Source: a virus. Taken from it: a stretch of DNA of 64,000 nt. Of the stretch, positions 22,549 through 38,958 are shown piece after piece. The position numbers and the translations under genes are program-made. The stretch's first letter is position 1. Each line of letters opens with the position of its first letter. The DNA lies in the IMG/VR virus record IMGVR_UViG_3300045253_000023, positions 97,562 to 161,561 of that record. One strand, written 5' to 3'. The notes beneath the pieces were generated by a model. That model was given only the letters and a program-made list of their open reading frames with translations. It was not told the origin of the DNA and did not search any database.

Positions 22549-22848
22549 ATGAAATTCAAAGCACATCTTGCGGAAGGATTCGCCAATTATCTCGGATACT
22601 CAGGTTCCGGAATGAAGTTGCCTCGTGATCGCCAGAAAGCTGGTGAAATGAATCAAGATGACGTCAAGTACATGAGCGTCGGCAAAGAAACAGACGTGTA
22701 TGAGATTGGCACTGGCGACAAGAAATATGCCAAAGTGGTGTCCATTTTCTCCACGACTGGTGGCGGACATGCTGTCACTGTTCAACTTGCTGATGCCGAT
22801 GGATACTTCAAAGGCAAGAAACTCACATACAAGATCGTCAAAGGATAA
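22549..22848 (+). CDS. late hypothetical protein, candidate internal head protein
   Basis: CTAAGTA upstream; N-terminus MKFKAHLAE resembles the T4 capsid-targeting sequence. Confidence 0.5.
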   Translation: MKFKAHLAEGFANYLGYSGSGMKLPRDRQKAGEMNQDDVKYMSVGKETDVYEIGTGDKKYAKVVSIFSTTGGGHAVTVQLADADGYFKGKKLTYKIVKG

Positions 22849-22854
22849 TATCGC

Positions 22855-22883
22855 TTTACTTCTTCCTGAACTTCAGGTAGAAT
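22855..22883 (+). promoter_or_regulatory. sigma70-type promoter for nadM-Nudix
   Basis: TTTACT-17 bp-TAGAAT. Confidence 0.75.
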
Positions 22884-22930
22884 ATACATCACAATTGAAT
22901 TCACGTCATCACGATAGGGAGTCTATCAAC

Positions 22931-24007
22931 ATGAACAACAAGCCATATGATTTGGCCGTCTACATCGGCCGTTTTCAACCCTTCCACAATGGGCATCTTC
23001 ATGCCCTACTCGAAGCCCATAAGTTGGCCTCGAAAGTCCTGGTGCTCATCGGCACCAGTGAATCTCCTCGCACACCCAAGAATCCATGGACATTCCAAGA
23101 ACGCGCATCCATGATCATGAATGCTGTGGAAATCAGCAATGCGCTGGTTGGCACTGGTGATCTTATTCCAATTCCACGACGCCTGAATGACTTCATGTAT
23201 GATGACACCAAATGGGTGACTCGTGTTCAACAGGAAGTTGATGATTTTATTGAACAAAATGGTGATTTGCGAACAGGCAGAGCGCCAAGGATCGTCATTG
23301 TGGGTCACGAAAAGGACGCATCCTCATACTACCTGCGCATGTTCCCGCAATGGGAATTTGTTGACACTGGCGCAGCCCAAGAGAAACCAGTCTTGGAAGC
23401 AACCAAGATTCGACAGCTGATTTTTGAAGACAACCTGATGTATGTTCAGTCTGTTGTCCCGCCAAATGTATACACATTCCTGAGTGCCTGGTCATCCACC
23501 ACGACCTATGATGGCGTGCGTGCTGAGTATGATCACTACAAAGAATACAAGGCCAAGTTTGCTTCCGCTCCATTTCCACCCACCTTCCTCACCGCAGATG
23601 CCTGCGTGATTCAATCTGGACACGTATTGCTGGTGCGTCGCAAGAGAGAACCAGGAAAGGGATTGTATGCGCTCCCTGGTGGTTTCGTGAATCAACATGA
23701 GACCATGGAGGATGCGGCACTGCGTGAACTCATCGAAGAAACCAACATCAAGCTGCAACCTGATGTTCTCAAGCGTTGCATTCGCTATAGTAAGGTGTTT
23801 GATGCTCCGCATCGATCATTGCGCGGTCGAACTGTCACTCAGGCATTCCTGATTCGCCTCGATGATTCCAAGCCACTGGCCAAGGTCAAGGCAGGAGACG
23901 ACGCTGAGGAGGCAATGTGGGTTCCATTCAATAACGTCATGTCAATGCGTCCAGAGATGTTCGAGGACCATTATGACATGGTGTTCCATATGATCTCAAA
24001 GGCATGA
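22931..24007 (+). CDS. nadM: bifunctional NMN adenylyltransferase / Nudix ADP-ribose pyrophosphatase
   Basis: IGRFQPFHNGH (HxGH), KNPW, ATKIR; Nudix box ALPGGFV...ETMEDAALRELIEET. Confidence 0.93.
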   Translation: MNNKPYDLAVYIGRFQPFHNGHLHALLEAHKLASKVLVLIGTSESPRTPKNPWTFQERASMIMNAVEISNALVGTGDLIPIPRRLNDFMYDDTKWVTRVQQEVDDFIEQNGDLRTGRAPRIVIVGHEKDASSYYLRMFPQWEFVDTGAAQEKPVLEATKIRQLIFEDNLMYVQSVVPPNVYTFLSAWSSTTTYDGVRAEYDHYKEYKAKFASAPFPPTFLTADACVIQSGHVLLVRRKREPGKGLYALPGGFVNQHETMEDAALRELIEETNIKLQPDVLKRCIRYSKVFDAPHRSLRGRTVTQAFLIRLDDSKPLAKVKAGDDAEEAMWVPFNNVMSMRPEMFEDHYDMVFHMISKA

Positions 24008-24269
24008 TATATGATGTATCTAATCGTTGAAGATGTGATTGTTTACATTCCTGGTGATGAACGTTCTCGTGAATGTCCTGGCCATGGATATTCTGCGCAC
24101 ACTGAGACATATAAGAATGTCATCATTTGTCACGACAAAGAAGGTTTGCTTGCACAGATAAAACATCGAGACAGATATCCAGGTGGCAAGCCATACAAGA
24201 TTTACGAATGCAATCGCGAACTCAAGATTGTGAAAACAGTGGATTTTTGATGTCGCATGAATTATTTTC

Positions 24270-24332
24270 TAAGTGCTTGATGATTTGGAAAATTTAGTGC
24301 TTGACTTTTCAGTTCAATGGGAGTAGAATAGT
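24270..24332 (+). promoter_or_regulatory. early promoter module P7
   Basis: TAAGTGCTTGA, GGAAAATTTAGTGC-TTGACT(24301)-17-TAGAAT(24324). Confidence 0.9.
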
Positions 24333-25106
24333 TCCTGTCATTGAGAGGAACCTTCGCAATATGAGCACCAAGTCTGAAATCAAAGCCTTCATCCAGGAAG
24401 CTGTTGAGTATCTCGCTGACAACTATGGTGATGCGCCTTTCTGCGAAGCTGCCATCGCCATGGCGCGCGAAGACGGTCGAGATCACTATCTGGCTGAGTC
24501 ATGCTCGGCTGAAGAATTTGCTGAACTTTGTGCTGAATTCGCTGAACTTGAGGCTGGCACCATATGAAAATGACTTTCTTCAAGGCTGTGGCTGAGTTTC
24601 CAATGCGGGACAAGAAACCTGGCACTGAATTGTTTTATGTTGGCACTGGTTCTTGGCCGCTGACCAAGAACTTCCTCAATTCCAAGGTCTATCCCACTGT
24701 CAAGGCAGCTGACAAAGCATTGGCATCGTTGTCCAAGAACTATGAAGGTTGCATTCGCACGTATGTGCTTCCATTTGAATTGGAGTATGACACGCTGAAT
24801 GACACCGATCAAATGCGCGAGTTCGTTGCTGAATCCATGCGATATCCGCATTCTTCTTCAAACAACAAAACTGAATTCACAGTTACACCGTAACATGGGT
24901 GTTCATGCACATAATGGCACAATGCCTGGAGCAGTGACGCCGATCTGTAACAACTGCATGATTGCTCTTTGTTTTGACATTGGTGAACAAGAATACAAGG
25001 AAGACAAAGAGTTTTGGGACAATTGGGTCTGTCGCGACTGTAATGGCGGCGAACCCTTATCGCGCCATGTATGGCGTCAACAACACATACAAGAAGGAGT
25101 TTCTGT

Positions 25107-26543
25107 ATGACAAATCGCAATCCAATTCTATCCACCGACAGCTACAAGTTTTCACATGACAAACAATATCCGGAAGGCACTGAAGACATCTATGCCTATC
25201 TGAGCGCACGCGGGAGCCGCGTTGCAGGCTGCAATGAAGTCGTGATGTTTGGGCTTCAACCCTGGATTCATGATCGCATGTGCACTCCAGTGACGCGCAA
25301 GCATGTTGATGATGCGCGCATGTTTTGTATTGCTCATGGCGTCCCATTCAACTATGAAGGCTGGAAGTACATTGTTGAGAAGCACAATGGTTTCCTGCCT
25401 GTTGAGATTCGCGCTGTGCCTGAAGGCACCGTTGTGCCAGTTGGTATGCCAATGGTCACTGTTCATGCCACTGATCCAAAATGCGCATGGTTGACCTGCT
25501 ACCTGGAAACTGACATCATGCGCGCGGTCTGGTATGGTTCGACCGTTGCCACCATTTCGCGTCATTGCAAGAAGATCATCAAGAGATATCTGGACATCAC
25601 TGCTGACAATCCGGAGCAGGAAATCAGCTTCAAGCTGCATGACTTCGGCTTCCGTGGTGTCTCGTCAACGGAATCAGCGGAGATTGGCGGCGCGGCGCAC
25701 CTGATCAACTTCATGGGCACTGACACCGTTGGTGGTATAACGCACGCAATGGAATACTATGCTGCGGATGTTTGTGGGTTCTCCATTCCCGCATCTGAAC
25801 ACTCCACAATGACTTCCTGGGGTCGTGACAACGAAATCAAGGCATACTGGAACATGTTGGAGCAGTATGCTGGTCAAGGCAAAACATTTGCCATGGTCAT
25901 TGATTCCTACAACTGGCGCGAAGCAGTCGAGAAGCTGTACAACAGCGGATTCTTCGATGAGGTCAAGGCGCGTGGTGCCACCGTTGTGCTCCGTCCCGAC
26001 TCTGGTGATCCAACCAAGGTGCCTGTTGAACTGATTGGGCAGCTGATGTTGCTGCTTGGATATGACCGAAATGGCAAGGGATACAAGGTTCTCCCTTCTC
26101 ATGTTCGAGTCATCCAGGGAGATGGCATCACCTTTGAATCGCTGGAACAGATTCTGATCAAGATGGTGCATCATGGATTCAGCACATCGAACATTGCATT
26201 TGGTATGGGTGCTGGTCTGTTGCAGAAGTGTGATCGTGACACATTCAAGTTTGCCATGAAGTGCTCGGCAATTCAACACTTCAATGGTTTCTGGAGTGAT
26301 GTGTTCAAAGACCCAATTGATGCTCCTGACAAGAAAAGCCTGCGCGGTCGAGTGACCACAATCAAGCATGTGGATGGCACCATGAGTGTCACCACACTGG
26401 ACAAGCTGCGCGAAGAGCATCGCATCCAGATGACTGAAGAAGGCGACATGAACATGCTGAACGTGGTCTATGTGTTGGATCACAATGGAATGCGTGTCAA
26501 GTTCACCAACTTTGAGGCTATTCGTGCTCGCGCTGCCGTCTGA
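25107..26543 (+). CDS. nadV: nicotinamide phosphoribosyltransferase (NAMPT)
   Basis: TDSYKFSH, LHDFGFRG, IPASEHS, VIDSY, RPDSGDP, IQGDG, FGMG, RDTFKFAMK. Confidence 0.95.
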   Translation: MTNRNPILSTDSYKFSHDKQYPEGTEDIYAYLSARGSRVAGCNEVVMFGLQPWIHDRMCTPVTRKHVDDARMFCIAHGVPFNYEGWKYIVEKHNGFLPVEIRAVPEGTVVPVGMPMVTVHATDPKCAWLTCYLETDIMRAVWYGSTVATISRHCKKIIKRYLDITADNPEQEISFKLHDFGFRGVSSTESAEIGGAAHLINFMGTDTVGGITHAMEYYAADVCGFSIPASEHSTMTSWGRDNEIKAYWNMLEQYAGQGKTFAMVIDSYNWREAVEKLYNSGFFDEVKARGATVVLRPDSGDPTKVPVELIGQLMLLLGYDRNGKGYKVLPSHVRVIQGDGITFESLEQILIKMVHHGFSTSNIAFGMGAGLLQKCDRDTFKFAMKCSAIQHFNGFWSDVFKDPIDAPDKKSLRGRVTTIKHVDGTMSVTTLDKLREEHRIQMTEEGDMNMLNVVYVLDHNGMRVKFTNFEAIRARAAV

Positions 26544-26811: not shown

Positions 26812-26860
26812 ACCCTATTGACGTCTGCCCATGCTATGGGTAATTGTTGGTGTCCCAACA

Positions 26861-27250
26861 GGCCGTCATTGCAAGATGAGTGTATGAAGCGAGCCGAAAG
26901 GTTCTTTGGACGCGGGTTCGATTCCCGCCATCTCCACCAAAATGTATTGTGGCGACCATGGGTTCAATTCCCTTAACTCTTAGGCCGAGTGGAAGCGAAT
27001 GAGGAAAAGAGCTTAGCGGCTCGACAGGTTCAAATCCTGCTCAGTACATTTTGATGGGGATGCCCAGGTTTCGACAGGGGACATGACTAGGCAAGTGGAC
27101 ACTCCGCCGATGTTACTGGCGATTAAAGTGAAACAAAACTCCAAATGCAGCTAACGATGCTGTTTTCGACCAGTCTTCGAACGTTCTTCAGTTCCGCAAG
27201 GCTGCTTGATATCAACTGTGATCCCGAGTGGATTCCTCAACGGGATATGG
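26861..27250 (+). ncRNA. ssrA: circularly permuted (two-piece) tmRNA; outer ends approximate
   Basis: Acceptor piece ending GCGGGTTCGATTCCCGCCATCTCCACCA (26939) lies upstream of the 5' end GGGGATG...TTCGAC (27056); G3-U70 pair; ACACTC/GAGTGT helix 2; pk1; tag frame 27147-27209 AANDAVFDQSSNVLQFRKAA*. Confidence 0.92.
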
Positions 27251-27277
27251 AAGGGCAGGGCAACCTGCCCTTTCTTT
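27251..27277 (+). terminator. rho-independent terminator after tmRNA
   Basis: AAGGGCAGG-GCAA-CCTGCCCTT followed by TCTTT. Confidence 0.85.
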
Positions 27278-27347
27278 GTATGTTGATCATGCTATTACAA
27301 TGAATGTCTTGGTTGAGCGTTTGTCGCCGACAATTCAAAGGAAACTC

Positions 27348-38313: not shown

Positions 38314-38958
38314 ATGAAATTCAAGTTCTATTCAATCTTGTTTGCCATTGTGGCAGCTGTATCCTTCGCAGGATCAGCATTTGCACAGGTAGCAGAATCA
38401 GTTCCTGCTGATGCTCTGTCCTACACATACGTGCAAGGCGCATATCAGTACGACAACATCAACGGCGCAAATGCAGTCAACACCCATGGTGGTGCTGTCA
38501 ATGCTTCCGTGAATCTTGGCACATCGCCATTCTTCGTTGTTGGTAGCTTCGATCGATTGTCCGACGCCAATGCCTTTGCTGGTGGTGTTGACACATATCG
38601 TCTCGGTGCTGGTCTCCATGTTCCTCTGGCCTTGTCGGTGGATGCTTATGGAACCGCTGGTGTATTGAAGACTTCAGTGACTGCTGTTGATCCAAACAGT
38701 CAGTTCAACATCACCATTCCACGTGACTTCACGACCTATGGATATGATTTTGAGGCAGGCTTGCGAGCCGCACTCACAGATCGCATTCAGGTCAAGGGTG
38801 GAGTTCAAGAAGAGCGTTTGACGCGCACTTCTGATTGGACGACATATGGTTTGGGTGAAGTCTTGTTCAAGGTGACAAATCATGTGGACTTGGTGGGTGC
38901 ATTGCGTGCCAATCAGGATGATCGCATCTTGTCAGGTGGAGTTCGAGTCGAACTGTAA
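38314..38958 (+). CDS. outer-membrane beta-barrel protein (Ax21/YfaZ-like)
   Basis: Sec signal peptide ending AFA; LSYTYVQGAY start; alternating amphipathic beta-strands. Confidence 0.75.
   Translation: MKFKFYSILFAIVAAVSFAGSAFAQVAESVPADALSYTYVQGAYQYDNINGANAVNTHGGAVNASVNLGTSPFFVVGSFDRLSDANAFAGGVDTYRLGAGLHVPLALSVDAYGTAGVLKTSVTAVDPNSQFNITIPRDFTTYGYDFEAGLRAALTDRIQVKGGVQEERLTRTSDWTTYGLGEVLFKVTNHVDLVGALRANQDDRILSGGVRVEL

Follow-up and report, generated by a model that had tools for sequence, protein, structure and literature searches.

Circularly permuted tmRNAs, made of two pieces, are documented in phages. Buchholz et al. 2022 counted 53 two-piece genes among 133 unique phage tmRNAs, and Table S1 of that work gives Stenotrophomonas phages Mendera and Moby and Xanthomonas phage XacN1 as 'Permuted' (PMC9004378). 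The two-piece tmRNA of marine myophages is thought to be expressed early and to support translation (PMC9004378). In bacteria, the betaproteobacterial two-piece tmRNA is referred to, in passages of PMC9004378 and PMC11915505, as the 'third lineage' of Sharkady & Williams 2004. An older list of phage tmRNAs holds one-piece genes throughout (PMC4131195); the first-pass annotation of the DNA studied here, which called the classic phage tmRNAs one-piece, is right for that list and for 2014, but the view is by now outdated. The tmRNA database of PMC11915505 contains 11,946 permuted sequences and 79 sequences from phages. The newness that it implied for a phage-borne two-piece gene falls away, because such genes are published (PMC9004378) and annotated in GenBank.

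The window analysed here is a stretch of 64,000 nucleotides (positions 97,562 to 161,561 of IMG/VR virus record IMGVR_UViG_3300045253_000023). Within it ARAGORN finds one tmRNA, of type tmRNA* (permuted), at 26847-27300 (+), and Rfam model RF04321 (tmRNA_permuted) matches 26878-27209 over its full length (model positions 1-213) with 102 bits against a cut-off of 47 (E 1e-20), so the window copy passes the curated threshold. Both results agree with the first-pass annotation, which had proposed a phage-encoded circularly permuted tmRNA with a long tag and had suggested such models as a check. The positions that it gave for the end of the CCA (26939), for G1 (27056) and for the tag frame match the sequence and ARAGORN. 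Since the CCA lies upstream of G1 on the same strand, the order is permuted, and the gene runs from acceptor piece through spacer to coding piece (Table 1); its 5' start differs by tool, being 26847 in ARAGORN and 26836 with the Rfam beta model. This is an intact circularly permuted gene for a two-piece ribosome-rescue RNA in an uncultured T4-like phage.

Table 1. Parts of the permuted tmRNA gene, in positions of the window.
Feature	Position	Strand	Evidence or detail
Acceptor piece (3' tRNA-like half)	26878..26939	+	ARAGORN, Rfam, sequence, covariation
Acceptor piece, helix 2 3'-side strands	26878-26883; 26901-26908		GAGTGT; GTTCTTTG
Acceptor piece, T arm	26912-26916; 26924-26928		GCGGG; loop TTCGATT; CCCGC
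Acceptor 3' strand	26929-26935		CATCTCC; discriminator A 26936; encoded CCA 26937-26939
Intervening segment, presumed excised	26940..27055	+	116 nt
Closing helix of the spacer	26940-26949; 27042-27051		AAATGTATTG with CAGTACATTT
T-loop-like hairpins in the spacer	26960-26972; 27025-27039		GGGTTCAATTCCC; CAGGTTCAAATCCTG
Leader before G1	27052-27055		TGAT, directly after closing helix
Coding piece, 5' part	27056..27146	+	Sequence, Rfam, covariation
Acceptor 5' strand	27056-27062		GGGGATG; conserved GGTTTCGAC also within the 5' coding part
Coding piece, helix 2 5'-side strands	27075-27082; 27099-27104		CAGGGGAC; ACACTC
Hairpin at pk1 position	27105-27108; 27118-27121		CGCC/GGCG; A-rich run precedes resume codon
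Tag reading frame	27147..27209	+	GCA GCT AAC GAT ... GCT GCT TGA
Post-tag hairpin	27221..27246	+	ATCCCG/CGGGAT, loop with TTCCTCA
Intrinsic terminator	27249..27279	+	11-bp stem and GCAA loop (27249-27274), then T-run

Covariation was examined in the tRNA-like domain and helix 2, in a MAFFT alignment of 50 unique related phage copies. All 50 form the acceptor stem at 7 of 7 positions, with an invariant G3-U70, and two of its positions covary with three to five pair types; the proposed alanine acceptor stem (GGGGATG/CATCTCC), the discriminator A and the CCA are all present in the window sequence. Helix 2a (GTTCTTTG/CAGGGGAC), 8 bp long in the window, is paired in at least 82% of copies at seven of its eight positions and shows as many as six pair types at a position; there is support, too, for the inner part of helix 2d (GAGTGT/ACACTC), so the proposed helix 2 between the two halves stands. 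The first pk1 stem, of 4 bp, sits where both Rfam models put a hairpin; the proposed pk1 stems CGCC/GGCG and TGTTAC/GTGAAACA lie in a region that aligns poorly and gained no covariation support among the 50 copies. The terminator described in the first-pass annotation is present with all 11 pairs and its T-run, and it coincides with the terminal hairpin of the Rfam beta_tmRNA model. A hairpin with a loop similar to that of the post-tag hairpin also follows the tag in phages DLP_6 and BUDD.

The closest sequences are in phages. A 60-nt stretch around the T arm has matches in 25 phage records, with identities of 83-97%; most of these phages infect Stenotrophomonas or Xanthomonas, and GenBank annotates a tmRNA at the matching site in Marzo, Bhz51, Yut2 and Yut3. 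With ARAGORN and Rfam, permuted tmRNAs were called in Marzo, DLP_6, BUDD, JGB6 and QDWS359, five isolated phages from different groups. A scripted scan of IMG/VR with the 3' tRNA-like core gave 106 loci, of which at least 64 are permuted copies sharing the core of the window gene and 16 are standard; the rest fell in neither class, many of them at contig ends. As a lineage marker this core was rejected, the same 31-mer being found in Streptomyces, Anaerolineae, Lysobacterales and others among the matches listed. Exact 26-nt and 32-nt patterns from the 5' half had no match in IMG/VR and metagenome contigs, and the degenerate tag pattern ANDAV[FY]DQ was found only in contig L018 and at three loci without a tmRNA. 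The window tmRNA is thus a divergent further member of a known, published class. It carries little weight as a discovery, phage permuted tmRNAs being documented also where the hosts carry a one-piece gene, and its practical value lies in annotation, since the RNA gene was missed in several GenBank phage records. Permuted tmRNAs lie unannotated in GenBank at L002:1475-1818 (DLP_6), L003:1466-1917 (BUDD), L004:1466-1874 (JGB6) and L005:1466-1883 (QDWS359), in regions that are blank or occupied by a 'hypothetical protein' CDS, some of them on the opposite strand.

Some of the related loci lie near unusual tRNAs. At L015:672-1059 and L071:11745-12132 two tRNAs with the anticodon CTA, labelled tRNA-Pyl by ARAGORN, look like amber suppressors; a permuted tmRNA whose tag has 21 residues (ANDAYFVAPAVSAARELRLAA) lies no more than about 1 kb away. 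Calls of tRNAs with four-base anticodons (ctga and gcgg) adjoin permuted tmRNAs at L062:11331-11403 and L080:5727-5803, and these could be frameshift-suppressor-like tRNAs or artefacts.

Taken on sequence evidence, the locus probably works as a circularly permuted ssrA gene of beta type in a lytic T4-like phage, and its most likely role would be to supplement host trans-translation in infected cells. What kind of gene it is follows from the data above; the mechanism beyond that is drawn from established tmRNA biology. A single precursor would be transcribed rightward, and the trailer after CCA would pair with the leader upstream of UGAU-G1, extending the acceptor helix. Host RNase P would cut at G1 and host 3'-processing enzymes would trim to CCA, releasing the spacer and leaving two RNAs that remain base-paired. 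Host AlaRS would charge this two-piece RNA, and SmpB and EF-Tu of the host would bring it to ribosomes that have stalled on the broken mRNAs abundant in T4-type infection. Ribosomes would be freed and the truncated peptides would receive the tag specified by the phage. Neither SmpB, SspB, a second tmRNA nor a tyrosine integrase was found in the phage, so that SmpB of the host would be required.

The tag frame called by ARAGORN, AANDAVFDQSSNVLQFRKAA followed by a stop, is exactly the one in the first-pass annotation. It is open, starts with GCA (or GCT) and ends with Ala-Ala-TGA. As called the tag has 20 residues, and it has 19 if the resume codon is the GCT at 27150; both lengths are kept because ARAGORN seems to over-extend the tags of relatives, putting V, VA or VT before the AND motif (VAAND..., VTAND...). 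A length of 20 falls inside the family range, in which 10 of 61 unique tags have at least 20 residues and the mode is 10-14. The antepenultimate residue is Lys, and the resulting KAA ending, found in 2 of the 61 tags, is rare and belongs to the features private to the window copy; 38 tags end in LAA, IAA or MAA, and L, I or M is antepenultimate in 39. With KAA in place of the usual L/I/M-AA, efficient ClpXP targeting is doubtful, in view of established work on the E. coli ssrA tag. The tag begins AAND..F; its aromatic residue at position 7 makes this start similar to the segment of the E. coli tag that Flynn et al. 2001, a study cited in PMC5587285, reportedly described as binding SspB. At three other loci (L025:3671-4053, L080:4884-5359 and L089) the tags given by ARAGORN are unlike degradation tags (DDCKSSKPRK..., GPSEPAQ...AAQ and ARPGRGS...RRL, respectively), and these may be mis-called frames or degenerate genes.

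These peculiarities of the tag bear on a second possible function, namely that the RNA goes on rescuing ribosomes, or competing for SmpB, while its main effect is to replace the host degradation tag with a phage tag poorly read by ClpXP; tagged proteins would then meet a different fate, or trans-translation signalling in the host would be dampened. The rare KAA end where most family tags have L, I or M, the 10-residue linker after the AAND..F motif and a length of 19-20 residues against a shorter family mode all point this way, as does the host-type tag, which in the one-piece gene of Lysobacterales is ANDDNYALAA. There is also a precedent for interference, since a phage tmRNA with the TLD only, that of DS6A, inhibits the host tmRNA (PMC4131195). 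Nevertheless, we regard this explanation as unlikely: the tag keeps its terminal Ala-Ala and its N-terminal AAND motif, and the family as a whole looks degradative because other phage copies carry ordinary LAA, IAA or MAA tags. This 20-residue tag ending in KAA would be a handy natural variant for asking whether phage tags are meant for degradation.

The spacer shows how the permutation junction is built. In the family the trailer right after CCA pairs with a leader ending 4 nt before G1, and in the window this junction is a 10-bp helix, AAAUGUAUUG/CAGUACAUUU, followed by UGAU. The longest trailer/leader helix has a mean of 9.9 bp in 43 unique phage spacers and 5.5 bp in shuffled ones, it is made of different sequences in different phage copies, and UGAU precedes G1 in 28 of 50 unique phage spacers. 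The covarying helix and the conserved UGAU before G1 are therefore a mark of the permutation junction in phage copies, and the helix, which is present in beta-type bacterial copies as well, gives a concrete and testable model of how the precursor is cut. A sigma-70-like match inside the spacer (TCGACA-18-TACATT, 27021-27050) would put the transcription start near G1 and make the coding piece an independent transcript; an internal promoter is not relied on because the match is at chance level (one, against 1.2 in shuffles) and no conserved -10 element was found in the leaders of the relatives.

Family spacers range from 4 to 175 nt, and that of the window is set apart by its content. It holds two T-loop-like hairpins where about 0.03 are expected (background 0.22 per kb); such hairpins occur in only 3 of 39 long family spacers and are, like the KAA ending, private to this copy. 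Several identities for the spacer were rejected. Default ARAGORN finds no tRNA in it, and the thresholds needed to obtain a tRNA call also produce overlapping calls that are implausible; scored by itself, the spacer is matched best by the Rfam tRNA-Sec model, with 18 bits (E 0.17, cut-off 47), and the Y-RNA model YrlA reaches 17.9 bits (E 0.83). The tRNA-Sec alignment places the closing helix as acceptor stem, GAGC/GCUC as variable arm and the second T-loop hairpin as T arm. The hairpins read as tRNA-derived debris or, less likely, as a processing module. An extended form of the latter idea is that the whole 116-nt spacer is a tRNA-like module which tRNA-processing enzymes of the host excise as 'punctuation', making both tmRNA ends and perhaps releasing a third stable RNA. 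The closing helix, the variable-arm-like hairpin and the second T arm do mimic the top half of a long-arm tRNA, with a further T-loop hairpin upstream, while the fold of the spacer is not unusually stable (z = -0.64); we consider this only a slim possibility.

Debris in the spacer is also one of the points that would fit a decaying relic, that is, a gene from an ancestor phage that is no longer used and whose long tag and long spacer arose by drift. In the same direction, the RF04321 score of the window copy is lower than the 109-137 bits of four of the five isolated-phage copies (BUDD has 77.5) and the approximately 160 bits of bacterial genes, its beta model score is under the cut-off, and no consensus promoter was found upstream of the acceptor piece. 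Decay is nonetheless very improbable, as all identity elements and the helices between the pieces are intact, the tag frame is open and ends in AA-stop, and a strong terminator is retained; moreover, many family members that are ordinary in other respects have a long spacer or a long tag.

The genome around the gene is of the lytic T4-like type. The source record has 161,561 bp (161.5 kb) with direct terminal repeats and is rated 100% complete. The phage encodes T4-type topoisomerase subunits gp39 and gp52 and baseplate gp6, as well as a DNA ligase, a UvrD-like helicase and a TET/JBP oxygenase. Its gp39 is only about 39% identical to that of any isolated phage, and a search for a sister genome by gp39 topoisomerase synteny gave none, the maximum being about 41% identity besides two short partial matches. 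The tmRNA is directly preceded by two NAD-salvage genes, coding for an NMNAT-NUDIX fusion and NAMPT, and by an 80-residue ORF; the downstream neighbour is a cell-wall hydrolase. The NAD-salvage pair (435 and 490 aa, respectively) occupies 22700-26543 of the window, on the strand of the tmRNA. The Xanthomonadales-like host proposed in the first-pass annotation keeps the standing of a weak hint: a porin-like gene at 38314-38958 has matches of 26-33% identity in 5 of 61 Lysobacterales genomes and in none of 61 Burkholderiales genomes, which is too weak to name a host.

Because tmRNA genes are common integration sites of phages and fragments of them occur in prophages, as passages of PMC4383910 and PMC9004378 describe, the locus could in principle be a piece of host ssrA left by imprecise prophage excision, or an attP core, but this is effectively refuted by the presence of both halves, the tag frame and the terminator, by a T4-like lytic genome with terminal repeats and no tyrosine integrase, by the one-piece gene in the likely host clade and by the lack of a near-identical bacterial sequence among the matches listed.

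As to the origin of the gene, the best model in the tRNA/tmRNA clan is beta_tmRNA (RF01850) with 68.3 bits, and as this is below the cut-off of 84 the window copy is described as beta-like in architecture and descent, without being assigned to the curated family. Three relatives, DLP_6, JGB6 and Marzo, exceed that cut-off with 95-104 bits. Beta-type genes in Accumulibacter and two other betaproteobacterial genomes share the core of the window gene. Across the tRNA-like domain and helix 2, identity to the window copy is 80.5% for IMG/VR contig L043 and 79.7% for DLP_6, and falls to 57-61% for the bacterial beta-type genes. A phylogeny against two-piece tmRNAs had been suggested, and its beta-type part was run: FastTree gave an unrooted tree in which the window joins DLP_6 and L043 with support 0.76, and in which the three bacterial genes make up a clade of their own with support 0.93. 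Two origins offered in the first-pass annotation are not supported. Against an independent permutation stand the position of the copy inside a phage-borne lineage and the junction features common to betaproteobacterial two-piece genes, the 10-bp trailer/leader pairing of the window among them. Against a recent capture from a two-piece host ssrA stand the low identity to beta-type genes and the absence of any near-identical sequence among the matches listed. The best explanation of the sequence relationships is that the gene came by inheritance or exchange inside a phage-borne lineage of wide distribution and was probably neither created here nor freshly derived from a host. Lysobacterales, the host clade of the isolated relatives, carry the standard one-piece gene, and a strong permuted match was found in only 3 of 81 sampled genomes of the GTDB order containing Accumulibacter (the sample includes one unpublished genome, G029, on which no claim rests). 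This permuted lineage shows much greater diversity among phages than among bacteria, so a phage could have been the source of the two-piece ssrA of betaproteobacteria.

Among the described systems, the one-piece phage tmRNAs of the mycobacteriophage Bxz1 group and Bacillus phage G (PMC4131195) are likewise phage ssrA genes dependent on host SmpB but have the standard unpermuted order. The marine myophages (Melnitz and pelagiphages) also carry a permuted ssrA in a myovirus, but theirs is of the alpha-type permuted lineage with a glutamine riboswitch in the 3' domain (PMC9004378), and Rfam gives no riboswitch match at the window locus. The betaproteobacterial two-piece tmRNA has the same permutation, tRNA-like core, trailer/leader junction helix and terminal hairpin. 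In two bacterial genes the junction helix is UAAGAGCAU/AUGUUCUUA and CAAGGGCA/UGUUCUUG, and the AAGAGCA-like trailer of these genes (L277 and L279) is similar to the one in DLP_6 and Marzo, while the window trailer reads AAAUGUAUUG. The bacterial genes differ from the window in the helix 2 loop (GUAUGAAGC in the window against GUAAUUCCGG), and two of the three leave the terminal A of CCA unencoded and have the leader GGU, where the window encodes CCA and has UGAU. Accumulibacter has a form with a 4-nt spacer, which is also present in seven phage contigs.

The nearest described copies are those of Stenotrophomonas and Xanthomonas phages, namely the Menderavirus members Marzo, Moby, Mendera and IME-SM1, and DLP_6, BUDD, JGB6 and QDWS359. 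In Marzo the tmRNA call (L001:1409-1895) overlaps a tRNA-Leu at its 5' end and a tRNA-Thr at its 3' end, so the Menderavirus tmRNA lies inside a tRNA processing cluster; the window gene instead lies between the NAD-salvage genes and the cell-wall hydrolase. Outside the RNA the isolated relatives have no nucleotide similarity to the window, their tags are 12-14 residues long and end in IAA, LAA or RYA, compared with 20 residues and KAA, and the window differs in the two T-loop-like hairpins of its spacer. In the RNA itself the agreement is close: gene order is as in the window, the tRNA-like domain is nearly invariant (60 nt at 88-92% identity to the window), and both share the helix 2 architecture, the trailer/leader helix with UGAU, the AND-type tag start, and the hairpin and terminator after the tag.
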